The notes: generated by a model not told the origin, from the letters alone. 38,491 nucleotides of DNA from an uncultured bacterium (GCA_964448115.1 CAYUVA010000044.1:1-38491); one strand, 5' to 3'. Positions 6,306 to 38,437 are shown, counted from the first letter of the stretch. Made by a program: numbers and translations.

Positions 6306-7367
6306 ATGGCGAAATATCAAAGAAAGACTAAGAAGATAGCTATCGGCAATGTACCCATAGGCGGTGACAGCCCGATTGCCGTGCAGTCGATGACTAAGAC
6401 CTCTACTTGCGATATAGATGCCACGGTGAAGCAGATACTAGGGCTTGAGGCTGCCGGCTGTGAGCTAATCCGGGTGGGAGTCAAGGATGAAGACTCTCTG
6501 CAAGCGTTACCTTCAATAATAAGCCAGGTAAACATCCCGGTCATAGCTGACATCCACTTTAAGGCAGAGCTTGCGCTTGGTGCCATCGAAGCGGGAGTGC
6601 ACAAGCTCAGAATCAATCCAGGCAATATAAGGGATAAAAATAAGCGAAAAAAGGTGGTACACGCCGCCAAAGAGAGAAACATCCCTATCCGCATAGGAAT
6701 AAATGAAGGCTCAATCCCCACCGAATGGAAAAAAAGATATGGCACCGATATCGGTTCAGCGATGGTGCATGCTGCCCTCTCTGAGATCGACTTGTGCGAA
6801 AAGGAAGGATTCGAGCAGCTGGTGATCTCCATGAAGGGATCCGATGTGATGAGCACCGTATCGGCATATCAACGGATTGCACAGCTAGTAGATTATCCGC
6901 TTCATTTGGGCATCGCTGCCGCCGGACCCTATCAGCAGGGATGCATAAGGACTGCACTTTGCCTTGCCATACTGTTGAACCAGGGCATCGGCGACACGCT
7001 GCGCGTCTCTTTGACCGCCGACCCGATCAGCGAAGTTCAGGTCGCCAGAAGGATTCTCCACGACATGGGGTTGAGAGATCTACCTCTCCCCACCATCTTA
7101 GCATGTCCAACCTGCGAGAGATTGAGACTTCAGATAATAGAGCTGACCAATGCGGTGCAGGAAAGGCTCAATCAAGTAAACTCCAATATCAAGATCGCAA
7201 TAATGGGCTGCGAGGTTAACGGACCCGGCGAAGCCAGGTTGGCAGACCTTGCGATCACCGCATCCGAGAAGCAAGCGATAATCTATAAACATGGGCGCAT
7301 AGTGCAACGCATACCTCTTGAACACGCTGCAAAGGTCTTCCTTAACATGCTCGATGACATGATCTGA
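6306..7367 (+). CDS. ispG: 4-hydroxy-3-methylbut-2-en-1-yl diphosphate synthase IspG/GcpE
   Basis: PIAVQSMT, IADIHF, RINPGN, RIGINEGS, GIGDTLRVSLTADP, CPTC and MGCEVNGPGEA [4Fe-4S] ligands. Confidence 0.95.
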   Translation: MAKYQRKTKKIAIGNVPIGGDSPIAVQSMTKTSTCDIDATVKQILGLEAAGCELIRVGVKDEDSLQALPSIISQVNIPVIADIHFKAELALGAIEAGVHKLRINPGNIRDKNKRKKVVHAAKERNIPIRIGINEGSIPTEWKKRYGTDIGSAMVHAALSEIDLCEKEGFEQLVISMKGSDVMSTVSAYQRIAQLVDYPLHLGIAAAGPYQQGCIRTALCLAILLNQGIGDTLRVSLTADPISEVQVARRILHDMGLRDLPLPTILACPTCERLRLQIIELTNAVQERLNQVNSNIKIAIMGCEVNGPGEARLADLAITASEKQAIIYKHGRIVQRIPLEHAAKVFLNMLDDMI

Positions 7368-14467: not shown

Positions 14468-16120
14468 ATGAATAAAAGAAAACCAAGCGACAAAGGATTA
14501 TTAGCAGCAGGGTTGCTGGTGGTCATAGTCGGTCTTTGCGCTATTTTAATCTTATTATCCTTTGACAAATTGCCTATCTATGTCGATGATGCCTTGATTA
14601 CCTACCGATACTCGTGCAATTTAGCACAGGGCAAGGGAGCGGTCTTCAATGAGAACGAGCGGGTAGAGGGTTACACAAATTTTCTATGGATGCTAATCTT
14701 ATCATTTTTCTGCGATCCTGGTGATGAGTACCTGGTGATACACGCCTCCACCGTGCTGGGAATCGTTTTTACCTTGGGAGCCTTGATCGTTCACTTTCTT
14801 TTATGTCGTCTATTGATGCAAGGCAATGCTCTTTATGCTCTGTTGCCAGTATTGCTACTGGGAGTAAATGGCGCTTACTGGATCTGGGCATTGTGCGGTC
14901 TTGAGGGACCTATGTTCATTTTCTGGGTTTTGCTGGGATTGTATCTATTATTTCGTAAGCAATCCAAAGGTAGTCCGCTCGCTTATGTTTTTCTATTTCT
15001 AGCCTCGCTGACCAGGCCGGAGGGTCTTATTTTCGCGCTGTTAAGCTTCCTATATCCATTCAAGCTGCAAGGTTCTCCAAGGGTACAATTTTCCTCTCGT
15101 AAGATAGTCGGAATAGCGATCTTTCTTGTTCCCTACCTGGCTTATTATATCTGGCGATATTATTACTATGGTTATCTGCTGCCCAATACCTTTTATGCGA
15201 AGACTGGTGGCGGTTGGCACCAGATGTTGCGTGGCGCAGAGTATATCCTTGATTTTCTTCACTTTTATGGCTTGCCTTTGCTGATTATACTAGCTGGCTA
15301 TCTCTTTTATCACACAAAGAAGGCTGAGGATCTATTCATTTCGTTGCTTTGCATGGTTTACTTTGCATATATAATTTACATTGGCGGGGACTGGATGCCG
15401 TTCTACAGGTTCCTAGCTCCTGTATTGCCGTTGCTTTACCTATTAGGGGGGCTTGGATTCAGGAGCATTATGGTTGGCCTGGGGAAGACCTCTGATAGCA
15501 GATGGTTGGCATTGGTAATAGCTGTTATTCTAGCCATCTATACCCTGCTTCCTGCATTGAACAGCAAGCACAGGGACAACCTGTTGTTTGAGGACAATCT
15601 TACCCGCATGAGGATAAAGATAGGCAAGTATCTCAAAGCCAACGCCTCACCGGATGCGGTCATCGCTATCGGTGCGGTCGGCGCTATACCTTATTTCAGT
15701 GGTCTTAAGACTATAGACATGCTCGGGCTGGTCGATGAGCATATAGCACATACAAAGAATCTTTCCTTTGGTTCTGCCGGGCATGAGAAGGGAGATCCGG
15801 AATACATATTCAACCGCAAACCGGATTATATATTCCAACTGGCTGCATTGACTGATGAACCAAAGTCGTTCGATGAGTTCGTGCATCATTTTCGGAATCA
15901 TCGTTACAGCAAGCTGTATAACTCGGAGCACTTCAAGGAGTTCTATAGGCTGGAGAACATGCCGTTGGATGGCAGGTTTCTGACCTACTTCAAGCTGAAA
16001 TCAGTCCAGGATCGCAAGTTTTTATTCGAGCTGCCCACCCTTGACAGAAAAAAGCCGAAGGAGTTGGATCCACCAGACGATCCTGCGTCTTCTGTGCACA
16101 CAGACCGAATCATTCACTGA
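14468..16120 (+). CDS. Polytopic GT-C-fold membrane glycosyltransferase-like protein
   Basis: DDALITYRYSCNLAQGKGAVFNENERVEGYTNFLW, GLEGP, LTRPEG, LLPNTFYAK, GGDWMPFYRFLAP, IDMLGLVDEHIAH; about 11 TM helices. Confidence 0.7.
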   Translation: MNKRKPSDKGLLAAGLLVVIVGLCAILILLSFDKLPIYVDDALITYRYSCNLAQGKGAVFNENERVEGYTNFLWMLILSFFCDPGDEYLVIHASTVLGIVFTLGALIVHFLLCRLLMQGNALYALLPVLLLGVNGAYWIWALCGLEGPMFIFWVLLGLYLLFRKQSKGSPLAYVFLFLASLTRPEGLIFALLSFLYPFKLQGSPRVQFSSRKIVGIAIFLVPYLAYYIWRYYYYGYLLPNTFYAKTGGGWHQMLRGAEYILDFLHFYGLPLLIILAGYLFYHTKKAEDLFISLLCMVYFAYIIYIGGDWMPFYRFLAPVLPLLYLLGGLGFRSIMVGLGKTSDSRWLALVIAVILAIYTLLPALNSKHRDNLLFEDNLTRMRIKIGKYLKANASPDAVIAIGAVGAIPYFSGLKTIDMLGLVDEHIAHTKNLSFGSAGHEKGDPEYIFNRKPDYIFQLAALTDEPKSFDEFVHHFRNHRYSKLYNSEHFKEFYRLENMPLDGRFLTYFKLKSVQDRKFLFELPTLDRKKPKELDPPDDPASSVHTDRIIH

Positions 16121-16130
16121 TATCGACAGC

Positions 16131-16189
16131 GTGGGGGCAATCCCCTGTGGTTGCTCAATTTGAGGGCAGGCATGGGGACCTGCTCCTAC
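16131..16189. repeat. Inverted pair of GTAG-type REP elements (REPIN-like doublet)
   Basis: + strand GTGGGGGCAATCCCCTGTGGTTGCTC (16131-16156) and - strand GTAGGAGCAGGTCCCCATGCCTGCCCT (16163-16189), each an imperfect hairpin after a GTAG/GTGG tetranucleotide. Confidence 0.75.
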
Positions 16190-16317
16190 AGTATTTGTCC
16201 CAAAAGACATTCATCATTTTGAACGCATATTGTTATAAAATACGCGCCGGATTGTGAATAATCGTAACCTTTTAACCGGATCGAACGGCGATGATGTTGG
16301 TCTGGATCATATCTCAT
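16186..16317 (-). pseudogene. Truncated REP-associated tyrosine transposase (RAYT/TnpA-REP, Y1 HUH family) N-terminus
   Basis: Manual translation MRYDPDQHHRRSIRLKGYDYSQSGAYFITICVQNDECLLGQIL* matches the characteristic RAYT N-terminus (HRRSIRLKGYDYSQxGAYFxTIC). There is no HUH motif or catalytic Tyr, and REPs flank it. Confidence 0.85.
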
Positions 16318-16333
16318 TGTTCATATTTCCATA

Positions 16334-16360
16334 GGGGCAGACACCCGGTTTTGTCCCTAC
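16334..16360 (-). repeat. GTAG-type REP element upstream of the RAYT remnant
   Basis: Minus strand GTAGGGACAAAACCGGGTGTCTGCCCC, an imperfect hairpin. Confidence 0.7.
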
Positions 16361-16615
16361 GATGAGGTTTCAATGATCGTCGGTTTGATCATTCAAATTA
16401 TCGACCATTTCGCATATATCTCGTTCTTATTCTACTACCTGCCTCATTTCACAATATTTGGAATCTCTATCATACTGCTACATGGCAAATCTAATCCAAT
16501 TATCCAATGACTTGACATTCGGGTTGTATCACTGACAAGATCCCTTCTGTTTATGATAATTAGAGCTACAGGTATGACTGCCAATAAATGATAAATGCTA
16601 TATGGAGCTGAGTGA

Positions 16616-19060
16616 ATGGCGCTTTTTAGAAAAAGTAAAGTAAAAAAGTTGCAGCAAAGGGCACTCGAAAGAATCGAAAATCCCCTTGAGGCAATGAAAC
16701 AGGTAGATGAGCTACTGAAACTATCAGCAGATGATGACATACCTATATTGATCGAGAAGATCCTCTCAGCGCCAGCCGCCGATGAGTATCGAGAAGAGAT
16801 TCTATCTTGGGCTGCCGAGAGCTACGATAAACTGGGTGATACGACCAGGGCGGGGCAGCTTTACTCCGAGTTGCTCCGAGCATGTCCGAACTCCCCCTTT
16901 TCCATCAAAGCAAAGATTAGGCTCGCTGATCTAGCCATTGCCGAGCCAGATAAATATTCGAACCTCATGGAACAATTCGGACTTGGTCGCTTCTGTAAAG
17001 AACAGGATGCAGGCTCTTTGCCGAAGGAGCATCAGGTTCGATTCATCTTTACTAAGGCTCGATATCTTCTAGCCATCAGCGCCCTGTCTGAGGGAATGAA
17101 GTTGCTTGAAAGTTTGAAGGCATCGGGCGAACTTGCCGGGCTGGCTCCTTCGACAATAGTCGAATACTATCTTCTTTACGCCGATTTTGTTATCGATCAG
17201 CAGCCAATCGACACACAGAGACTGGAGGATACATATCGCTCTGCGCTGGAGCACGCCCATCAGGATCGGGATCGTGCCATAGTCTATTTGCATTATGGCA
17301 GGGCGCTGGCAGAAAGCTCGCTTAACCAGGCTATAGAGAAGTACGAGAACGCAGCCCGCTATTTCCAGAGCAGCAAGGAGACGAGACAAAAGGCGGTAGA
17401 GACAGGTATCGAACTGGCTGAGCTTTACCTTAAACATAATCAGGCGCAGCAAGCGATATTCGAGCTTGAAAAGACCCTGAAGAACCTGAATCCACAAAGG
17501 GTTCAGAGGCTCCAGATATTGCGACTTATGGCTTCGATATTTCTAAAAAGGTCAAGGCTTAAGGAGGCATTATCGGCAGCTCAATCAGCCATGCAACAGG
17601 CGCAATCATTGGCGGAAAGGGCACTGGTATCACTAGATCTCGGGGAGATAAAGGCTGCCATGGAGGATTATTCCTCGGCTGCCTTGGACATACAAAAGGC
17701 TTTGGAATGCGATGAATTACCGCAAAATCAGTGCTGGAAGGGAATGGCACTGCTAGGCAGGTGCGAGTTGGAACTGGGTAATCCTGATCAGGCGGTATCT
17801 ATTTTGAATGATCTGGTAAAGGAGTGCGACTCGACCGAGATCTTGTCCCAGGCTCATTATCTACTGGGGATGCGACTGCTCAAGGAAGGGAAGAGCGCAA
17901 GCGACCTAGTTAACGGTGCCATGAGCCTGAGGGATTTCCTTCGCCTCACCGATGATGTGGTGGCTAGGGCATCGGTAATAGAGGAATTAAGAAACTTGCG
18001 TGCCAGCCTAGCCATAGGCGAACAAGAGGTCCTTTTTTCTCAGGCGGAGCGCTTCAAGCTCGATGAAATATTGACTGATACGATCGGGGTGGGGGATCTC
18101 TTCGAGCGCCTCAAGGTCGGCTTGGGTAAGACCAGAAAGAGCCTAGTCATGCGCATCGAGAGCATCCTTTCCGAGGCATCTGAGGTCAACGAGGAGCTGC
18201 TCGACCAGGTGGAAGAAACGCTCGTATTATCGGATCTAGGTATCGATACGACCATGAATATAATGGATTACCTTCGCGGTAGATTCAGACATAAGCAACT
18301 GACCCAACCGGAGGAGATCTTATATTTCATCAAGGCACAACTGGAGGAAATCCTTCTGGAACACGGGGATGTGAAGGTGGATGTCGATGCTCATAAGCCT
18401 TTTGTTTTCTTGATCGTGGGAGTAAATGGCACCGGTAAGACAACATCGATAGCCAAGCTGGCATACAAGTATCGCAAGGAGGGGAAGCGGGTGCTGCTGG
18501 TGGCGGCAGACACCTTCCGCGCCGGCGCCATCGAACAGCTAGCGATCTGGGCAGAGCGGGTCGGCGCTGATATCATCAAGCACAAGGAAGGCTCCGATCC
18601 TACAGCAGTGGTCTATGATGCGATAAACGCCTCCGGTTCACGAGATTATGATGTTATAATCATCGATACGGCAGGTCGCTTGCATACCAAGATCAACCTG
18701 ATGGAGGAGATGAAGAAGCTGCGTCGCGTAACCAACCGTGAGCTTCCCGGTGCTCCACATGAGACTTTGCTCGTATTGGATGCCACCACCGGGCAAAACG
18801 CAATAAACCAGGCAAAGGTCTTTAACGAGGCGCTTACCTTGAGCGGAATAATCCTAACCAAGCTGGATGGTACCGCAAAGGGCGGGATTGTGATCACTAT
18901 CTCGCACGAGCTAAAGATACCGGTCAAGTTCATCGGAATCGGCGAAAAGATGTATGATCTAAGGGAGTTCAAGCCTGAAGAGTTCATCGAGGCGCTCTTC
19001 GGGGAGAGAACCATGTCAAGCGGATCCAGCAAGATCGAAACAATCGAGCCATCCGAATAA
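16616..19060 (+). CDS. ftsY: Signal recognition particle receptor FtsY with a ~490-aa N-terminal TPR-like domain
   Basis: NG domain from about aa 493 (LFERLKVGLGKTR): GVNGTGKTT, DTFRAGA, DTAGRLHTK, LVLDATTGQN, TKLDGTAKGG, FIGIGEK. The N-terminus has TPR-like helix pairs (LGDTTRAGQLYSELL, LGRCELELGNPDQAVSILNDLV, AHYLLG). Confidence 0.93.
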   Translation: MALFRKSKVKKLQQRALERIENPLEAMKQVDELLKLSADDDIPILIEKILSAPAADEYREEILSWAAESYDKLGDTTRAGQLYSELLRACPNSPFSIKAKIRLADLAIAEPDKYSNLMEQFGLGRFCKEQDAGSLPKEHQVRFIFTKARYLLAISALSEGMKLLESLKASGELAGLAPSTIVEYYLLYADFVIDQQPIDTQRLEDTYRSALEHAHQDRDRAIVYLHYGRALAESSLNQAIEKYENAARYFQSSKETRQKAVETGIELAELYLKHNQAQQAIFELEKTLKNLNPQRVQRLQILRLMASIFLKRSRLKEALSAAQSAMQQAQSLAERALVSLDLGEIKAAMEDYSSAALDIQKALECDELPQNQCWKGMALLGRCELELGNPDQAVSILNDLVKECDSTEILSQAHYLLGMRLLKEGKSASDLVNGAMSLRDFLRLTDDVVARASVIEELRNLRASLAIGEQEVLFSQAERFKLDEILTDTIGVGDLFERLKVGLGKTRKSLVMRIESILSEASEVNEELLDQVEETLVLSDLGIDTTMNIMDYLRGRFRHKQLTQPEEILYFIKAQLEEILLEHGDVKVDVDAHKPFVFLIVGVNGTGKTTSIAKLAYKYRKEGKRVLLVAADTFRAGAIEQLAIWAERVGADIIKHKEGSDPTAVVYDAINASGSRDYDVIIIDTAGRLHTKINLMEEMKKLRRVTNRELPGAPHETLLVLDATTGQNAINQAKVFNEALTLSGIILTKLDGTAKGGIVITISHELKIPVKFIGIGEKMYDLREFKPEEFIEALFGERTMSSGSSKIETIEPSE

Positions 19061-23064: not shown

Positions 23065-23355
23065 TTACTTCTCGATGACGCAGAGCACCTCGCTCTCGTT
23101 CATTATCAGGTACTCCTCGTCGCCGAGCTTCACCTCGGAGCCGGCATACTTGCCGAAGAGTATCTCGTCATCTACCTTGACTTCCATAGGCATACGGTCT
23201 CCATCCTCATCGAGTTTTCCCTTCCCGACCGCGATGACCTTACCCCTCTGTGGCTTCTCCTTTGCCGTGTCCGGGATGATGATGCCGCCCTTGACGACCT
23301 CCTCTTCTTCGATTCTCTTGACGATGATTCGATCTCCTAATGGTCTCAGATTCAT
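23065..23355 (-). CDS. groES: Co-chaperonin GroES
   Basis: [57 protein letters not shown] upstream. Confidence 0.98.
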
Positions 23356-23441: not shown

Positions 23442-23457
23442 TGCGAAAATCATGCCA
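23442..23457 (-). promoter_or_regulatory. sigma54 (-24/-12) promoter of groES
   Basis: Minus strand TGGCATGATTTTCGCA gives GG-N10-GC, close to the consensus TGGCAC-N5-TTGCA. Confidence 0.7.
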
Positions 23458-23519: not shown

Positions 23520-23578
23520 GTGCCATTTTGGCATTAAAGGGTATGGGATGGCAGGAGAATACAGTGCCAAAATGGCAC
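23520..23578. promoter_or_regulatory. Two palindromic TGCCA-N3-TGGCA sites, candidate enhancer (UAS) for a sigma54 activator
   Basis: GTGCCATTTTGGCAT (23520-23534) and GTGCCAAAATGGCAC (23564-23578), centres 44 bp apart, about -96 and -140 from the inferred TSS. Confidence 0.6.
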
Positions 23579-23592
23579 GATCTTGGATCGAG

Positions 23593-24693
23593 CTACTGAT
23601 AATCCCTGGTAATGGCGGCGATTATCTCCTCTTCTTCGAGGAAGGCACTAAACAACTTCTTGTCATAAGCCCTTCGTACCGCCACCTGTGGCTTGATCAG
23701 CTTCTGGCTGACCAGTCGATACAGGTCCTGATCCATTGTCTGCATCCCGGTCTCCAGTTGGTCGCTGGTCTGTATCAGGGTATATATCTGGAAGAACTTG
23801 CCATCCCTAATGACATTGGAAAGCCCATAAGTCGAGGTAAGTATCTCAAATGCAGCGACTCTTCCTTTTCCATCAGCGCGCTTGAAGAGATCCTGTGCGA
23901 TAACACCCTTTAGCGAGACCGAGAGCATCGTCTTTATATGCTCCTGTTCCTTTTCGGGGAAGATATCGACTATACGGCTCAGTGTCTCGGCGGCGCTGTT
24001 GGTATGAAGTGTTCCGAAAACAAGCACACCGGTCTCGGCGGCGGTCAATGCCAGGCTTATGGTCTCAAGATCGCGCATCTCTCCTATCAAAAGCACATCC
24101 GGCGACTCCCGAAGTGCCGAACGAAGCGCATCGGCAAAGGTCTTGCAGTGAGTCTTGACCTCGCGGTGAAATATGATCGATTCCTTGGGTTGATGAACGA
24201 ACTCTATGGGTTCCTCGATAGTTATGATATGCTTGCAGTATTTGCTGTTGATGGAGTCTATTATAGCCGCCTGGGTGGTGGATTTACCGCTACCGGTTGG
24301 ACCGGTAACTAGCACTAGCCCACGCTCCATCTCTGCAAAGCGATGCAGTACCTTTGGGAGACCGAGCATCTCGATGGTCTGTATATCAGCCGGTATCACC
24401 CTGAATGCCGCCCCGATGCCCTTCCTTTGCATGAATATATTGACGCGAAAGCGAGCTAAACCCGGAATCTCATAAGAACAATCAAGCTCCCATTCCTCCT
24501 CGAATCGTCTCCTTTGTGATTCATCGAGGATCTCGTAGATGAAGCGGTTGCCATCATAACGAGACAGAGGTCTGAAGCCTATGGGGATAAGGTCGCCATT
24601 ATACCTTATGTATGGCTGGTGTCCGACACCGATGTGCAGATCGCTAGCGCCCTGTTCTACAACCAGCTTCAGAAATGAATCGATCCTAGCCAT
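23593..24693 (-). CDS. pilT: PilT/PilU-family retraction ATPase
   Basis: GASDLHIGVG, RFRVNIF, GPTGSGKSTT, TIEEPIEF, LRESPDVLLIGEMRD, GTLHTNSA, GMQTMDQ. Confidence 0.92.
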   Translation of the reverse strand: MARIDSFLKLVVEQGASDLHIGVGHQPYIRYNGDLIPIGFRPLSRYDGNRFIYEILDESQRRRFEEEWELDCSYEIPGLARFRVNIFMQRKGIGAAFRVIPADIQTIEMLGLPKVLHRFAEMERGLVLVTGPTGSGKSTTQAAIIDSINSKYCKHIITIEEPIEFVHQPKESIIFHREVKTHCKTFADALRSALRESPDVLLIGEMRDLETISLALTAAETGVLVFGTLHTNSAAETLSRIVDIFPEKEQEHIKTMLSVSLKGVIAQDLFKRADGKGRVAAFEILTSTYGLSNVIRDGKFFQIYTLIQTSDQLETGMQTMDQDLYRLVSQKLIKPQVAVRRAYDKKLFSAFLEEEEIIAAITRDYQ

Positions 24694-24720
24694 AATTATT
24701 TAGGCGTGAGAGTTTTTTAA

Positions 24721-24890
24721 CCACCAAGGCACAAGGGCACAAAGAGGAAGCGGTACAATGGTACCGGAAACTCTAAATATCTTTTTCTTCCCTGTGTCTC
24801 TGTGCTGTTCATTATCTTTTTTTTATGTTCTTTGCGCCCCTTTCGACTTTGCTCAGGGCAGGCTCTTGCGAGGGTTCCTTTGCATCTTTC
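24721..24890. repeat. Intergenic repeat mosaic between the two pilT genes
   Basis: CCACCAAGGCACAAGGGCACAAAG, complementary-type CTGTGTCTCTGTG and CTTTGCG units, and a CCCTTTCGACTTTGCTCAGGGCAGGCT REP-like unit. Confidence 0.5.
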
Positions 24891-24897
24891 GCCATTC

Positions 24898-27648
24898 TTA
24901 TGTAAGCTCCAGCAGCTTTTCCACCTCCTGTGGATTGAAACACTTGCGGAAAGCGACATCATGGTCGATTTTTCCTTCTTTTACCAGCTTGACCAGCGCT
25001 TGATCCATGGTCTGCATCCCTATCTCGCTCATGGTGCTCATTAGCGAGGTCAATTGATGTGTCTTCTTCTCCCTGATCAGGTTGCTCACCGATGGATGTC
25101 CGATCATTATCTCAAAGGCAGCCAAGACGGCGTTTCCCTCTTCTCTTGACTCGACCAACTGCTGCATGATGATCGCCTTTAAGTTCTCTGATAGAAGCAC
25201 GCGCACATGCTCCTTCCTGTCTGGGGGAAAGGCGTTGATGATGCGGTCTATGGTCTTTGGCGCGCTATAGGCATGTAGGGTGCCGATGACCAGATGCCCC
25301 GTCTCGGCGGCGTTCAAAGCGATCGAGATCGACTCCAGATCCCTAAGCTCGCCGATGAAGATCACATCCGGATCCTCTCTAAGCGCGGCTCGCAAAGCAT
25401 TGGGAAAGCTCTTGGTGTGCACCCCAAGGCTCCGCTGATGGATAATGGCACGTCGAGGCGGGTGGATATACTCGATAGGATCCTCGATAGTGATGACATG
25501 CAGCTTGCGGTTGCGATTGATATAATCGATCATCGATGATGCAGTCGTGGTCTTTCCCATGCCGGTTGCGCCGACCACCAGCACGAGACCACGGCTTATA
25601 TAGCAAAAATCCTTTACTTGTTCGGGAGCACCCAGCACCCTCAACTGCGGTACTTCGTCTGGGATGACCCTGAAGACAGCGTTTACTCCCTCACGCTGAC
25701 GAAAGATATTGACCCGAAAGCGATCCTTTTCCTCGATGCTATAGCTGATATCGAGATCTTCCAGATCGTTGAACTTGGCGCGTTGATCATCGGTCATGAT
25801 CTGATACAGCATCTCCTCCACCTGTCGCGGGCTGAAGCTCTCTTTGAGCACCGGCTCGATGCGCCCGTATTTTCTATAATAGGGCGGAAGGTTCGATGAT
25901 AAGAATAGATCCGAGGCACCCTTTTCTTTTGTATAAAGCAGCAACCGATCCAGCGGCGTAAAGTGCTTGTTTTCAAGTATATTGGTCTCGATGATACCCT
26001 GACTATCCTTGAGCTTAAGCTCCTCGCTCCATCGTCGCAGGGTCTTGATCGCCTCCAGCCTGATACCCTTGTCCCTATCGACCATCAGCCTGCTCATCGC
26101 TTTCAGCGAGGGTTTGATCCTATATTCCTTTAGCATGGTGAGCACCTGCATACGAATATCCGCATCCTCATCCTCCACCAGTGGGATTATTTGCTCAACG
26201 ACCTTTGTATCCTTGATCCTGGCCAGCGCTTCCAGGGTTACCCATTTCATATCCGCATCCTTGAGGAATGGACTGATAATAGGTATCGCCTTTTCCTTGG
26301 CTATATTGCCGATAGCCTCGATGGCGCGCTCCCTTACCCACCAGTCATCATCCTTAAGGCAATTTAATACATGCTTGTATGCCCTTGGATCCTGCAACCG
26401 TCCCAGGGTCTCCACTGCCATGCGTCTTATTATATCACTAGGATCATCGAGCAGCTTGACCAGCGGCTCGAAGATATTTAGATTCTGGTAGTTGACCAGC
26501 TCCTTGGTTACCTCGTTTCGTTTCCACCAGTCCTCGTTTTTCAGCCCATCGACCATGCGCCAGACCAGGTCTTCATCGCCGACAGCGCGGATGAAGTCCG
26601 CGGTCTTCTCTCGAACCAGATCGTGCTCAGAGCCGATGATGCTAGAGAGGATCTTGGTACGATCCACCCGGTTCTCCTTTGCCATCTTGACCGCGGTCTC
26701 GAAGGCTACCTCGGCGATGCTCTCCTCTACATCGCGGATGCGTTCAAGGATAGTGTCGATCACCCGTTCATCACCGATGGCGCCTAGCACCTGTACCGCC
26801 TCGTAGCGCACGCGGGCATGGGGGTAGTGGATGAACTTGATCACTTGCGGTATAGCCTCGGCATCCCCGACATTGCCGATGCCGGTAAGAGCCAGGGTGA
26901 TGATCTTCACATCATCATCCTTGAGTAGTGTATAGAGCGGTTCCAGGCACTCCTTCTTGCCGATCTCTCCCAGCGCTTTGGCTACTACCTCCTTCACATC
27001 TCGATCCGGGTCGCGGACATACTGACCTAGCACCTCCACGGCGGCGAGCGATTTGAACTTGCCGAAGCTCTTGAAGGCGACTATGCGCTCCTCCTTCTTG
27101 GAGTGGCGAAGAAGCTCCTTGATAATCGGAACCGACCGCGAGCCACCTATACTAATAAGAAGCTCAATAAGGGTTATCTTGTTGGTATATTTGCCCCTTT
27201 TGGCTATCTCGGCGACCTTGACATAGATCTCTCGTCCACCGATTCGTACAAGTATTGGTTGGATGCATTTTACCTCAGCATCGCTTCCATCGACTAAAAA
27301 GCGCGTGAATGCTTCGATGTAGTTTCCATCCATCTTGCGGGCGATTTCCCTGAGGACGATGTGATCCGGGCGATATCGAACCGCCCTAAATAGATCAGCC
27401 AAAAAAGGAGCAACCGCATCGCTAGGAGCACTCGATAAAAGCATGGCGATAAGCGTATTCTTTTTTCTTATCTGCTTGGGGCTGGGATCGCGCGGGGTAT
27501 TTTCCAGAATTTTGATTAATTGGGCAGTAGGAAAGGCATCAAGGCTCATCACCGCCTGGTAAAGGAGGCTTTGTTCTTCCTCTGTCTTCCAAGTCCCTTG
27601 CTCTATGCGTTTTAAGATCTCGGCTTTGGTTCTACTTAAGAATGCCAT
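24898..27648 (-). CDS. HEAT-repeat domain fused to a PilT/PilU-family ATPase
   Basis: Many HEAT_2-like repeats (D.D..VR..AVEALG.IGD) up to about aa 560, then GASDLFLSS, RFRVNIFRQ, GATGMGKTT, TIEDPIEY, ALREDPDVIFIGELRD, AETGHLVIGTLH, NLIREKKTHQ, GMQTMDQAL. Confidence 0.9.
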   Translation of the reverse strand: MAFLSRTKAEILKRIEQGTWKTEEEQSLLYQAVMSLDAFPTAQLIKILENTPRDPSPKQIRKKNTLIAMLLSSAPSDAVAPFLADLFRAVRYRPDHIVLREIARKMDGNYIEAFTRFLVDGSDAEVKCIQPILVRIGGREIYVKVAEIAKRGKYTNKITLIELLISIGGSRSVPIIKELLRHSKKEERIVAFKSFGKFKSLAAVEVLGQYVRDPDRDVKEVVAKALGEIGKKECLEPLYTLLKDDDVKIITLALTGIGNVGDAEAIPQVIKFIHYPHARVRYEAVQVLGAIGDERVIDTILERIRDVEESIAEVAFETAVKMAKENRVDRTKILSSIIGSEHDLVREKTADFIRAVGDEDLVWRMVDGLKNEDWWKRNEVTKELVNYQNLNIFEPLVKLLDDPSDIIRRMAVETLGRLQDPRAYKHVLNCLKDDDWWVRERAIEAIGNIAKEKAIPIISPFLKDADMKWVTLEALARIKDTKVVEQIIPLVEDEDADIRMQVLTMLKEYRIKPSLKAMSRLMVDRDKGIRLEAIKTLRRWSEELKLKDSQGIIETNILENKHFTPLDRLLLYTKEKGASDLFLSSNLPPYYRKYGRIEPVLKESFSPRQVEEMLYQIMTDDQRAKFNDLEDLDISYSIEEKDRFRVNIFRQREGVNAVFRVIPDEVPQLRVLGAPEQVKDFCYISRGLVLVVGATGMGKTTTASSMIDYINRNRKLHVITIEDPIEYIHPPRRAIIHQRSLGVHTKSFPNALRAALREDPDVIFIGELRDLESISIALNAAETGHLVIGTLHAYSAPKTIDRIINAFPPDRKEHVRVLLSENLKAIIMQQLVESREEGNAVLAAFEIMIGHPSVSNLIREKKTHQLTSLMSTMSEIGMQTMDQALVKLVKEGKIDHDVAFRKCFNPQEVEKLLELT

Positions 27649-27804: not shown

Positions 27805-28671
27805 TTATACGCTGATTCTTTCCTTCAAGAACTTCTCTATGCGAAGATGTATAAACTCAGGCACCTCCAGCAATGCCAAATGAGTGCCCTTGTTTACGAT
27901 AAGTAGCTCCGAGTTTGCGATCAGGCGGTGCATGGTGTTTATCACCCTAAGAGGGGTTATATGGTCATTCTCCCCTCCAATAATAAGGGTGGGCACCTTT
28001 ATGGCATCGAGCATATCCTTTGCCGAGTGCTGCCTGGCATAGTTTATCGCCATGATCAAAGGCTTCAAGTCCATGCCCTGAAGGTTCTGTATATAACCGC
28101 GGAAATCCTCTGCCTTTAAGAAATGGCTGTTGCCAGCGATCCATCGAGCAAGATACTTGGATAAGGGAAGCGGCAACAAGATATTATGCCAAATATAGTT
28201 CAAGAACAGATGTGTGCTGTTTATGCCTCGATATAAAAGGGGGAATATCCACTTGAATGTGGTAAAGTTGAGGAAGGTCTTCACCGGGTTCTCATAAGAA
28301 CCGCAGATAGCAACCAGCGCGGATACCTTATCAGGATACTTATTATAGAATTCCAGTATCACCTGCACTCCGATGCCGTGCCCGACCAGAACCGCCTTGT
28401 CTATACCGTGCTCTTTTAACACGAACTCCAGATCCCGAGCGTGATTCTCGATGGATAGAGTCGTAAAATCCTTCGGTGGCTTGGAGTTGCCGTGGCAGCG
28501 GTAATCCCAGAGGATCACTCGATGATTGCCCGCAAAATACTCAGCGCAACGATTCCAGAGCGTTGAGTCATAGCCGATGCTGTTGCAAAAGACTATAGGC
28601 AGTCCATTAGAATTGCCTTGGTCTTTAGTCCATATTACAGTGCCATCGAAGCTCTTGAAGTACCTATCCAT
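27805..28671 (-). CDS. Alpha/beta-hydrolase fold protein lacking the nucleophilic Ser
   Basis: FKSFDGTVIW, WDYRCHGNS, VLVGHGIGVQV (GxGxG), PTLIIGGENDHITP, KGTHLALLE. Start placed at ATG 28671, overlapping the upstream stop, rather than 28719. Confidence 0.85.
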   Translation of the reverse strand: MDRYFKSFDGTVIWTKDQGNSNGLPIVFCNSIGYDSTLWNRCAEYFAGNHRVILWDYRCHGNSKPPKDFTTLSIENHARDLEFVLKEHGIDKAVLVGHGIGVQVILEFYNKYPDKVSALVAICGSYENPVKTFLNFTTFKWIFPLLYRGINSTHLFLNYIWHNILLPLPLSKYLARWIAGNSHFLKAEDFRGYIQNLQGMDLKPLIMAINYARQHSAKDMLDAIKVPTLIIGGENDHITPLRVINTMHRLIANSELLIVNKGTHLALLEVPEFIHLRIEKFLKERISV

Positions 28672-29110
28672 TTTTCTTTGATGCCTGATATATCTGTTCG
28701 GCTCTTTTCTTGAAGTCATTTAGCATATTCGGCAAGCTGACATCGAGTAGCGTTTTTAGTATGAAGCCAGGAACGAATATTCCAAAGTCTATATCGACAT
28801 TGTAGGTTGCTTTCGTCTTTTCATCGCCTATTTTCTCCAGCACCCAGCTTCCGCTGTTATGCTTGAATGCCCCGCGCAGGCGCTCCCACTCTACTTTGCT
28901 ATAGGGAGTCTCGGTCATCTTGAGCACATAGCTGAAATCCTTGACTACATGGATATTGAACTCGACCTCGGCGATATTCCCCTCCCGTTTGAGCACCTTG
29001 GCTCCACGCGAATCCCTCTGGAACTCGGCGTACTTCGGATAGTCAACAATGACATTATAGAGAACTTCAGGGGGGGTATCGATGATGATGGATCTTGATG
29101 ACTTTGGCAT
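28664..29110 (-). CDS. SRPBCC/START-domain protein (RatA/Coq10-like)
   Basis: SIIIDTPPEVLYNVIVDYPKYAEF, GAFKHNSGSWVLE, TKATYNVDID; RBS AAAGGAGG before ATG 29110. Confidence 0.85.
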   Translation of the reverse strand: MPKSSRSIIIDTPPEVLYNVIVDYPKYAEFQRDSRGAKVLKREGNIAEVEFNIHVVKDFSYVLKMTETPYSKVEWERLRGAFKHNSGSWVLEKIGDEKTKATYNVDIDFGIFVPGFILKTLLDVSLPNMLNDFKKRAEQIYQASKKNG

Positions 29111-29158
29111 CAGCGAACCTCCTTTCAAGCAAAGAACATTGCATGGACTTGAATCTGG

Positions 29159-37162: not shown

Positions 37163-37633
37163 GTGGAAAATATGGACAGGCGGCAGAAAACAATACTGAT
37201 CGTAGAGGACAACAAGGATCATATTGAGCTGATCAGGTATGCGCTGAACAAACTGGATCATGCTTATAATGTCGTTTTCCTGGAGGATGGCCAGGATGCA
37301 CTAGATTACATTTATCGAAAAGGAAGCTATAGCGACAATAGGCAGTACTCCGATCCGAGCTTGATATTGCTGGACATCAAGCTGCCCAGTATTGATGGCT
37401 TCGAGGTGCTTAAGACCTTGAAGCAGCACTCTGATAAGCGCTATATACCGGTTGTGATGCTCACTACCAGCGAGGCTTTGGATGATCTGAAGCGCAGCAT
37501 GTCACTGGGTGCGAACGACTATGTAATCAAGCCGATCAACTATGCTGATTTTCAAGAAAAGATCAGGATTATCGGGGATTACTGGATGTCGGTCAGTGAT
37601 ACGCACCTTCTCTTGGAAGAGATCTTCTCATAG
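37163..37633 (+). CDS. Single-domain response regulator (Rcp1/CheY-like)
   Basis: ILIVEDN, DGQDALDYI, LILLDIKLP, IPVVMLTTS, GANDYVIKP, YW tail; the true start may be ATG 37172. Confidence 0.9.
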   Translation: MENMDRRQKTILIVEDNKDHIELIRYALNKLDHAYNVVFLEDGQDALDYIYRKGSYSDNRQYSDPSLILLDIKLPSIDGFEVLKTLKQHSDKRYIPVVMLTTSEALDDLKRSMSLGANDYVIKPINYADFQEKIRIIGDYWMSVSDTHLLLEEIFS

Positions 37634-37672: not shown

Positions 37673-38437
37673 CTATTTCCCTTCGATCTTAGCCAGGGAA
37701 CTCATAGCTATATTACTCACGGTTGTAGCTTCAATATTCCAATTCCTATAGAATCCTAGTCTGCTTTCATCGCTTTGAAGGTCTTGCAGCTCTCCATAGG
37801 CTCCTCGGTATATAAACTCTCCTAGTGCCCAGGCTGCATATCCCCGCAGCTTTGGATCTGAGTGATGCAGGTATCTCATTAATGCTGGTATCGCCAGTGA
37901 GGTATCCTCCAGATGCTGTCGGCAGATGCGCCCCAGAGACCAAATAACTCCGATGTTTAGGCGCTCGTTATCAAGAATCATGTCATCCGCGACCAGATAC
38001 GAGGTAAACAGGGGAACGAACCCAGCCAATTCCTGGGGATTATTTTTTATTAGCTCGCCAATCCCCTGTGGAGCACCTAGGATGATGCTTCCTGACTCAT
38101 CATTCAGCGACCATACCAGCCGGGCAGCATAATTTCGTGCCTTCTCAGCTCTGCTCGATTCGGGTAGCCGAGATATCAGGATGCCCATCGCCTCAGCGGC
38201 GCGAAAATTGAGAAGCTCATCATCACAGGATAAAAGCCCCATGAGGGTTCTGAAGACCGCTTTGCCCTTTTTGCGGAGCTTATCGAGGCTATCGAGATCC
38301 CTTCTGGTCAGGGCTTCCTTGAGAATATTACTTAGCGACATGTCAATCTCTGGTTTACTTACATTTAATGAGTACTGCTGAAGGCTAGCATATGCTCTCG
38401 TATTTTCAAGCCTGGGCGTCCAATTGTGAGCTATCAT
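37673..38437 (-). CDS. HEAT-repeat protein, DVU0298-like
   Basis: FRAAEAMG, RLVWSLNDESG, GAPQGIGE, GVIWSLGRI, LRGYAAWALG; the true start is more likely ATG 38341. Confidence 0.7.
   Translation of the reverse strand: MIAHNWTPRLENTRAYASLQQYSLNVSKPEIDMSLSNILKEALTRRDLDSLDKLRKKGKAVFRTLMGLLSCDDELLNFRAAEAMGILISRLPESSRAEKARNYAARLVWSLNDESGSIILGAPQGIGELIKNNPQELAGFVPLFTSYLVADDMILDNERLNIGVIWSLGRICRQHLEDTSLAIPALMRYLHHSDPKLRGYAAWALGEFIYRGAYGELQDLQSDESRLGFYRNWNIEATTVSNIAMSSLAKIEGK

Follow-up and report, generated by a model that had tools for sequence, protein, structure and literature searches.

We analyzed two adjacent minus-strand genes for PilT-type ATPases in a 38,491-nucleotide (nt) stretch of DNA from an uncultured bacterium (GCA_964448115.1, CAYUVA010000044.1:1-38491; here called the window). 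The first gene encodes a 916-amino-acid (aa) protein in which a HEAT-repeat solenoid is fused to a PilT ATPase, and the second encodes a stand-alone partner PilT of 366 aa. The pair is a conserved two-ATPase cassette: the pairing of the two genes is real and ancient, the fused and the partner ATPases form separate clades, and the clades differ in catalytic motifs and in an N-terminal sequence signature. We tentatively read the two-gene module as a PilT/PilU-like coupled motor pair that would be joined by a HEAT clamp, which we consider quite possible, if short of probable.

Open reading frames (ORFs), Pfam and TIGR01420 agreed on both genes, in line with an earlier note made from the sequence alone, which had described a HEAT-PilT fusion and a downstream stand-alone PilT. 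TIGR01420, the NCBIfam model of the PilT/PilU family with a curated cutoff of 319.1 bits, scored 428.7 bits over residues 566 to 907 of the fusion and 448.9 bits over residues 4 to 345 of the partner. The Pfam family T2SSE was found at residues 576 to 834 (E 7.7e-40) and 80 to 279 (E 1.1e-43), respectively. HEAT families spanned residues ~100 to 545 of the fusion (HEAT_2 in four stretches, 175.3 bits, E 2.9e-52; HEAT_PBS, 90.3 bits; HEAT, 85.4 bits), giving this region the HEAT profile of a PBS-lyase-like repeat solenoid. The AlphaFold2 model of the fusion, built on a 48-row alignment, consisted of an all-helical solenoid (residues 1 to 543), a low-confidence linker (547 to 560) and a PilT fold (565 to 914); because its pTM was 0.49 despite a mean pLDDT of 88.7, it does not fix the relative placement of the domains. 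Foldseek aligned the PilT part with Geobacter metallireducens PilT4, Pseudomonas aeruginosa PilT and PilU at target-normalized TM-scores of 0.87 to 0.96, and a fold search with the whole model gave informative matches from this part only. The closest solved relative of the partner was P. aeruginosa PilT (3jvu), which aligned end to end (E 4.2e-106), while the match to PilU (9n32) was weaker (E 2.8e-73). The PilT fold, comprising a PAS-like N-terminal domain and a RecA-like ATPase, was thus present in both proteins, in the fusion by the model and in the partner by the 3jvu alignment. The features are listed in Table 1.

Table 1. Features of the HEAT-PilT fusion gene and its partner (window coordinates)
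Feature	Coordinates	Strand	Basis
HEAT-PilT fusion gene, 916 aa, A-type, F clade	24898..27648	-	ORF, Pfam, TIGR01420, AlphaFold2
HEAT solenoid, residues 1-543, all-helical	26020..27648	-	DSSP on the model
HEAT repeats with predicted partner-binding surface, residues 373-501, including DWW 373-375 and DWW 435-437	26146..26532	-	complex prediction
Flexible linker, about residues 544-564	25957..26019	-	pLDDT <50 at 547-560
PilT ATPase domain of the fusion, residues 565-916	24901..25956	-	Foldseek, motif table
Intergenic spacer, 204 nt	24694..24897	-	weak hairpin, then T-rich stretch at 24766-24751
Partner PilT, 366 aa, B-type, P clade	23593..24693	-	ORF, TIGR01420, clade, motifs
Partner N-terminal domain surface, residues 3-50, carrying R3, Q14, F40 and R41	24544..24687	-	complex prediction, signature counts

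To follow the architecture in relatives, we scanned genomes with the pattern DxDWW[VIL]R[EI]xA, of which one HEAT DWW motif is itself a part; the scan alignment was made from HEAT only, to avoid swamping by ordinary PilTs. The scan yielded at least 598 stretches, at least 577 of which were relatives. The best 80 of these at least 577 related stretches, all from metagenome-assembled genomes, served as the locus sample, in which ORFs were called and HEAT and PilT domains marked by script. HEAT was fused to PilT in 45 of the 80 loci, with 36 to 75 nt between the HEAT and PilT matches, and L013 and L034 appeared to be frameshifted copies of this arrangement. Importantly, a second full PilT lay directly downstream on the same strand in all 41 fused loci in which pairing was assessable, i.e., those whose sequence continued for 2.3 kb or more beyond the HEAT domain. 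In L070 the first 76 aa of the second PilT were visible; the sequence ended too early in L001, L009 and L055. The stop-to-start gap, determined in 39 loci, had a median of 2 nt, with overlap in 16 loci and more than 100 nt in only 3. The search for HEAT-PilT architectures and adjacent partners that the earlier note had proposed thus bore out its view of a dedicated two-ATPase unit. In the window itself, the second PilT is present downstream, as that note had stated, but the genes do not abut: the 204-nt gap is unusually long compared to the relatives, and the hairpin in it is weak.

A word-indexed search with the full-length fusion protein listed 119 relatives, among them 52 with HEAT families plus T2SSE in precomputed Pfam annotation (830 to 960 aa), 65 single chains with tandem PilT-PilT domains and one CobA-PilT fusion, plus one protein outside these groups. 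The HEAT-T2SSE relatives were 26 to 33% identical to the window fusion, the nearest among the matches listed at 33%. In a protein atlas, five HEAT-T2SSE clusters of 51 to 131 members were found, commonest in Myxococcota and Acidobacteriota; they bear automatic names only, at most "twitching motility protein PilT". Many of the HEAT-PilT loci were likewise labeled Myxococcota. Exhaustive HMMER with the HEAT domain alone gave 50338 matches at E<=1e-3 and 1338 at E<=1e-30. Since giant multi-HEAT proteins dominate its top ranks (only P0150, P0213 and P0234 matched collinearly), the family cannot be sized from this search.

These counts bear on the simplest alternative, namely, ordinary redundant PilT paralogues that lie side by side by chance, with the fusion an annotation or assembly artifact. 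Many bacteria have several PilT paralogues (PMC5065972 and PMC13584747), and the 204-nt gap with its weak hairpin could mean separate expression. Against this stand the recurrence of the fusion in 45 of 80 loci, 52 of 119 listed relatives and five atlas clusters, the pairing in 41 of 41 loci, and the separation of the two ATPases into clades with their own motifs. This alternative is already contradicted and is extremely improbable.

The clades were seen in a tree of 117 PilT domains (IQ-TREE quick search, LG+G4, PilB outgroup, SH-aLRT support) that included a single PilU reference. We use F for the HEAT-fused, A-type ATPases, P for the partner, B-type ATPases, and kA and kB for the first and second PilT of loci in which HEAT is joined to a kinase (see below). 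Each group formed a clade: F (44 rows; support, 99), P (40 rows; 98), kA (12 rows; 100) and kB (12 rows; 96). All four fell inside a node with support 97 together with gammaproteobacterial PilT, while the PilU-position paralogue of Xanthomonas sacchari and two PilTs adjoining pilB or pilC lay outside it. F and kA formed one side of a branch with weak support (76). Holding P and kB together gave a better likelihood than the free search and was not rejected (p-AU, 0.80). The comparison with canonical PilT and PilU that the earlier note had suggested thus separated F from P, and by inspection the two subtrees contain matching subclades. The window proteins were placed near the base of their own clades, on long branches.

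All motif strings quoted in the earlier note were found in the translations. The fusion has GATGMGKTT, TIEDPIE, LREDPD and GHLVIGTLHAYSA, with Walker A GATGMGKT at residues 693 to 700 and the His-box residues H785 and H792. The partner has GPTGSGKST, TIEEPIE, LRESPD (including S197) and AETGVL; here V223 replaces the first His-box His, and H230 is retained. In both proteins the Walker A conforms to GxxxxGK[ST], the Asp box has its Glu, and the catalytic Glu is found behind the atypical Walker B. Two of the partner's deviations turned out to be clade traits. The first His was present in 43 of 44 F and 12 of 12 kA sequences and in 0 of 40 P and 0 of 12 kB sequences, the position being occupied by V (23 sequences), T (8), S (6), C, I or A (1 each) in P and by Ile in all 12 kB. 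Similarly, the Asp of LRE-D-PD was found in F (43/44), kA (12/12) and kB (12/12) and in none of 40 P sequences (S in 30, A in 9, N in 1). The Walker A Lys was retained in all four clades, the Asp-box Glu was present in all F, P, kA and kB sequences, the catalytic Glu was missing from only one of the 44 F and one of the 40 P sequences, and the second His was kept almost everywhere. Of the deviations pointed out earlier, therefore, the loss of the first His and LRESPD characterize the partner clade; GATGMGKTT (which still matches GxxxxGK[ST]), TLHAYSA and TIEEPIE are idiosyncratic, their odd positions being shared by no other of the 44 or 40 sequences of the respective clade.

At the C terminus, the counterpart of AIRNLIRE, a motif of PilT proper as distinct from PilU, reads SVSNLIRE in the fusion and GLSNVIRD in the partner (clade consensus, A-v-a-n-l-i-R-k in F and a-.-s-n-l-I-R-E in P); the core of the motif is partly retained, and the Arg at position 3 is gone. 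With respect to the His box, the second His of PilB (H420) was described as touching the gamma-phosphate, and T411, stated to sit between H413 and H420, as mediating an inter-chain contact, because of which the His box is proposed to couple neighboring subunits (PMC5424180). Both histidines were described as required for function (PMC6762196). The fusion has the His pair of the PilT/PilU family, and the partner, in which the first His is absent (V223), is therefore an atypical family member. Thus, the partner clade appears to have kept the catalytic contact and given up a coupling residue, which may have altered its activity.

A contact between the HEAT arm and the partner was predicted when HEAT residues 1 to 560 were modeled together with the partner PilT. 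The complex score was 0.67 (0.67, 0.68 and 0.66 in the individual runs), and the best of three controls scored 0.00; in the calibration sets, 116 of 157 solved complexes and 2 of 215 mismatched pairs attained the mark set for this score. Contact agreement between the runs was at least 73%, with a partner pLDDT of at least 83. On the HEAT side, the interface comprised residues 373-375, 378, 405-406, 435-437, 444, 465-473 and 495-501, and on the partner side it fell within residues 3 to 50. Residues D433, D435, W436 and W437 of HEAT were invariant or nearly so in family alignments. Since a fold and sequence search of solved structures found no solved HEAT-PilT complex, the result is unlikely to reflect memory of a known structure.

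Furthermore, the predicted partner surface carries a sequence signature, R/K3, Q14, F/Y40 and R41, which was present in 38 of 40 P, 12 of 12 kA and 9 of 12 kB sequences but in none of 44 F sequences, 9 reference or stray ATPases and 130 halves of tandem PilT-PilT fusions. Restricted to [F/Y]40 and R41, the counts were 40/40 in P, 12/12 in kA and 9/12 in kB, and again 0/44, 0/9 and 0/130 in the other groups. Because the signature is present in P, kA and kB and gone from the HEAT-tethered F, a contact in trans is supported. We conclude that the proposed binding of the HEAT arm to the N-terminal domain of the partner PilT is supported by the predicted contact plus an independent sequence signature, and both agree with the earlier suggestion that the solenoid may act as a partner adaptor.

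Alternatively, the HEAT arm could bind a third party, such as a substrate, a kinase or a component of the machine, while the partner signature would serve, e.g., ring-to-ring contact or docking to a platform. The HEAT domain is alphaRep-like, and solenoids of the HEAT/alphaRep type are general protein binders. Its top solved sequence matches were alphaRep proteins (E down to 3.7e-54), MTH187, CpcE and YibA, which have the same PBS-lyase HEAT repeat type; these are lyase subunits or designed binders, and a PilT ATPase is neither fused to any of them nor present in their solved structures. In addition, the DWW surface is conserved in HEAT-only proteins without a nearby PilT, and in 31 of the 38 assessable loci the gene after the pair encodes a kinase whose N-terminal region is helical. 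Such a role is quite unlikely, since the signature is lost exactly in the HEAT-tethered PilT (0/44, compared with 40/40 in P and 12/12 in kA), the predicted complex cleared its mark whereas each of the three controls scored 0.00, and the HEAT of the kinase class again adjoins signature-bearing PilTs.

The HEAT-only class made up 13 of the 80 loci (~685 aa, without an adjacent PilT), proteins with HD-CE, nSTAND1 and HEAT 3 of 80 (~1130 aa), and 4 of 80 lay outside the named architecture classes. In one HEAT-only locus, L018, a PilT is encoded 4 kb downstream of the HEAT-only protein (15946-17019, +). It carries a near-signature (K3, Q14, Y40 and K41) with the first His kept, a hint that a PilT may be the working partner of some HEAT-only proteins, too. 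The ~1130-aa HD-CE/nSTAND1 NTPase proteins of L069, L072 and L077 have a C-terminal HEAT with the DWW motif and are unrelated to PilT.

The nearest known counterpart with two coordinated PilT-type motors is PilT-PilU, the type IVa pilus retraction ATPases of Vibrio cholerae and P. aeruginosa. PilT and PilU were described as independent homohexamers in vitro and in vivo that coordinate (10.1101/634048), and they have been modeled as stacked rings in which the C terminus of PilU wraps the flank of PilT, contacting D2, R35, K36 and E53 (10.1101/2025.10.30.685630). As in our pair, two adjacent PilT-family paralogues form a unit. The region of the PilT N-terminal domain gripped by PilU in that model is the same as the predicted HEAT footprint on the partner (residues 3 to 50). 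One member is moreover off consensus at LRE-D-PD, with Ala in the PilU-position paralogue of X. sacchari and mostly Ser or Ala in the P clade. In contrast, the appendage is a short C-terminal tail in PilU and a 543-residue N-terminal HEAT solenoid here, and PilU keeps the first His-box His, which is found in 0 of 40 P sequences. Neither window protein is a PilU. A C-terminal extension was found in neither: the helices of the PilT fold extend to residue 914 of 916 in the fusion, and the 366-aa partner aligns with PilT to about residue 350. Moreover, F and P lie within the support-97 node, without the PilU-position paralogue (the one PilU reference in the tree).

A different arrangement, raised in the earlier note, would be a mixed hetero-hexamer, in which three A-B dimers make up a single ring of alternating subunits and the HEAT arm reaches the neighboring B subunit. 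It would fit the strict 1:1 pairing with start/stop overlap at 16 of 39 loci, and the ~20-residue linker is long enough for a neighboring subunit. The residue lost in B belongs to a motif linked to inter-chain cooperativity (PMC5424180), and an A-B interface could tolerate or exploit this loss. Rings of two PilT modules are plausible because single-chain tandem PilT-PilT proteins exist (65 of 119 listed relatives). On the other hand, these tandem fusions have neither the His asymmetry nor the signature, and PilT and PilU are described as independent homohexamers (10.1101/634048), modeled as stacked rings (10.1101/2025.10.30.685630). Our computations do not separate mixed from stacked rings. 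We regard the mixed ring as rather unlikely.

The tandem single chains, 64 of which measure 697 to 748 aa and one, with DUF4388 at its N terminus, 1022 aa, lie in the range P0004 to P0074 and are labeled Lentisphaerae, Verrucomicrobiota and Victivallales. Like the pair, they bind two different PilT modules together, and their first half never has the Asp of LRE-D-PD (S in 41, N in 24). They differ in having the first His, along with the second, in both halves (first His, 64/65 and 65/65) and in lacking HEAT and the R3/Q14/F40/R41 signature. The window pair is not of this type, being encoded by two genes 204 nt apart with different motif patterns, and the tandem proteins are a separate lineage. 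Another combination was seen in P0092 (514 aa), which has a CobA/BtuR-type corrinoid adenosyltransferase domain (residues 6 to 129) and a PilT ATPase 52% identical to the ATPase domain of the window.

Compared by description only, MXAN_6705 and MXAN_6706 of Myxococcus xanthus are also adjacent PilT paralogues, "highly conserved across Myxococcales", one of which, MXAN_6705, has a longer N terminus (PMC13584747). In that source this N terminus is called intrinsically disordered, in contrast to the HEAT solenoid found here. All five M. xanthus PilT paralogues are said there to have conserved Asp and His boxes, and deletion of MXAN_6706 is reported to cause a partial S-motility defect (PMC13584747).

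In most relatives the cassette is accompanied by a Ser/Thr kinase. Of 38 assessable fused loci, 31 have a kinase gene downstream of the partner in the same orientation, and the N-terminal region of the encoded kinase is helical and weakly TPR-like. In L067 the kinase is directly upstream of the cassette, with none downstream. No kinase match was detected in the assessable fused loci L002, L015, L016, L036, L061 and L073; four of these six (L015, L036, L061 and L073) have an HD-GYP-REC-DUF4388 protein as a neighbor. We take DUF4388 to be the PATAN domain. The window also has no kinase gene with the pair, and we conclude that it holds a divergent, minimal, kinase-less version of the cassette. 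The kinase of L067 (7018-9537, +) carries an SRPBCC (Polyketide_cyc2) domain; a stand-alone SRPBCC gene lies two genes upstream of the fusion in the window (28664-29128, -), a parallel that is probably a coincidence.

A second architecture links HEAT to kinases directly. In 12 loci (L035, L042, L051, L052, L056, L059, L062, L063, L068, L071, L074 and L075), with 3 truncated look-alikes, an ~800-aa HEAT-Pkinase protein is followed by two stand-alone PilTs. These loci are labeled mostly Gammaproteobacteria and Eisenbacteria, and genes for FHA (9/15), PP2C (4/15) and FHA-GAF-HD-GYP (6/15) proteins are neighbors in this class. They resemble the window in a homologous HEAT domain, in the first-His asymmetry (Ile in the second PilT in 12/12) and in the signature on the stand-alone PilTs; they differ in that HEAT is joined to the kinase instead of the A-type PilT, and they are likewise uncharacterized. 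Separate HEAT and PilT genes, which the earlier note had named as a sign of a fusion artifact, thus do occur in 12 loci. However, HEAT is kinase-fused there and still adjoins two PilTs, which strengthens the HEAT-PilT link.

The signaling neighbors raise the possibility that the pair acts outside pilus biology, as PilT-derived ATPases of a Ser/Thr phosphorylation module with another substrate. In the window, the absence of pilB, pilC, pilin and secretin genes asserted in the earlier note withstood three tests: no T2SSE, T2SSF, secretin or pilin family was found by Pfam in the 24 other ORFs, phmmer with PilB and PilC-like queries gave 0 matches, and a regular expression for prepilin signals gave 0 matches in all six frames. 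Among 47 fused loci, only L037 had a PilC-like gene in its flanks, together with the only Pfam-confirmed PilB. Of seven PilB-query matches in fused loci, only that in L037 is thus a PilB by Pfam; among the matches listed, most were partner PilTs within ORFs called too long, and one was a stray PilT of L060. Besides the scarcity of pilus genes, the recurrent Pkinase, FHA, PP2C, FHA-GAF-HD-GYP and HD-GYP-REC-DUF4388 neighbors fit a non-pilus role. Such roles have been proposed for orphan PilT paralogues, e.g., Geobacter sulfurreducens PilT1 in the recA operon (PMC5065972).

However, both proteins score well above the TIGR01420 cutoff and lie inside the node that contains gammaproteobacterial PilT, without the PilU-position paralogue. 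Canonical pilT-pilU genes are likewise found away from pilus genes; since the annotated pilT-pilU pair of X. sacchari also sits among unrelated genes, missing pilus genes nearby are weak evidence on the role. Moreover, PATAN response regulators are described as interacting with the type IV pilus motor (10.1101/2021.06.11.447907). The S-motility defect of the MXAN_6706 mutant (PMC13584747) points in the same direction, for a pair not shown to belong to the HEAT-PilT family. A role outside pilus biology is therefore unlikely.

For the arrangement of the rings, the division of labor between them and their target, we infer the following. Gene 1 encodes an A-type PilT ATPase with the canonical catalytic set, tethered by a flexible linker of ~20 residues to the 543-residue solenoid. 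Gene 2 encodes a B-type PilT. Its Walker A Lys, Asp-box Glu and catalytic Glu are intact, as is the second His, presumed to contact the gamma-phosphate; the first His-box His and the Asp of LRE-D-PD have been lost. The concave, DWW-bearing HEAT repeats (residues 373 to 501) would clamp the B-type N-terminal domain (residues 3 to 50) and thereby physically couple two PilT-type assemblies. This coupling would be PilT-PilU-like, with the appendage of one motor gripping the N-domain flank of the other, here by an N-terminal solenoid instead of a C-terminal tail. With its NLIRE-like motif kept and its inter-subunit His box altered, the B-type could form the ring that faces the machine, or else a bridge ring whose ATPase activity is attenuated, and the A-type may provide the power. 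As the target, a type IV pilus-like machine with its genes at another site in the genome would be most likely. A Ser/Thr kinase accompanies the module in most relatives, the window being the minimal, kinase-less version.

Several points weigh against this coupled-motor reading. The complex score is the model's own confidence, and its calibration counts are only rough because our own alignments were fed to the prediction. F is homologous to P, and the contact in trans is not set apart from one in cis with the fusion's own N-terminal domain. Conservation on the HEAT side is not discriminating (0.65 at the interface, 0.56 in the rest), and both DWW motifs are also invariant in the 13 HEAT-only and 3 nSTAND-HEAT proteins. 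As a Rosetta-stone test, the tandem PilT-PilT fusions were negative for the His asymmetry and the signature. The link to pili is weak, given the PilC-like gene in 1 of 47 fused loci, and the matching of F and P subtrees was judged by eye. Finally, the window copy is atypical: its two genes are separated by 204 nt that contain a weak hairpin, it lacks a kinase, its branches are long (F, 0.82; P, 0.51), and its residues neighboring the Walker A and His-box positions are unique.

Some other window genes deserve mention. Directly after the partner PilT lies a lone groES (23065-23355, -), with no groEL behind it and a convergent 626-aa ORF next; groES adjoins the pair in no related locus of the 80-locus sample. 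Upstream of groES (about 23442-23457 and 23564-23578) are the palindrome GTGCCATTTTGGCAC and a TGGCAT-N5-TCGCA stretch, which presumably resembles a sigma-54 -24/-12 element. Ten kilobases from the pair, a gene for a small HEAT protein of the DVU0298 family (37673-38437, -; 153.7 bits compared with a cutoff of 75) is divergent from that for a stand-alone response regulator (37163-37633, +). An 814-aa FtsY (16616-19060, +; TIGR00064, 361.2 bits over residues 524 to 795) has an N-terminal TPR extension of ~500 aa, with TPR families over residues 63 to 403. For IspG (6306-7367), identity does not exceed 52% among 8000 scored relatives, and its matches carry mixed phylum labels; the source organism apparently belongs to a deep, poorly sampled lineage.

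The coordination of paired retraction ATPases remains to be explained in type IV pilus biology; the stacked-ring model of PilT-PilU dates from 2019 to 2026. We conclude that the pair is a variation on the theme of paired PilT-type motors, not a new kind of system. Within this theme, the HEAT family would be a second, independent solution, with a large, folded, mutable clamp in place of a short tail and a partner whose inter-subunit histidine is always missing. Partner residues R3, Q14, F40, R41 and V223 and HEAT residues W436 and W437 are directly testable. A literature search that covered few subscription journals found no paper on a HEAT-PilT fusion, a kinase-linked PilT pair, a PilT linked to a Ser/Thr kinase and FHA, or a PilT-like ATPase extended at its N terminus, and no description of phospho- or cyclic di-GMP (c-di-GMP)-type control of PilT motors, to which the recurrent kinase, FHA, PP2C and HD-GYP neighbors point. 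An unlikely further step would be that the HEAT family is a dedicated PilT-docking module on varied effectors (PilT ATPase, Ser/Thr kinase) and the A/B pair a signaling-controlled double motor, whose B ring would have traded cooperative catalysis for an adaptor role. The HEAT-PilT family is common in uncultured Myxococcota and Acidobacteriota. If the docking-module view is true, regulated PilT machines of a previously unrecognized class would be widespread in Myxococcota, Acidobacteriota and candidate phyla, and they might have a target different from the classical pilus.

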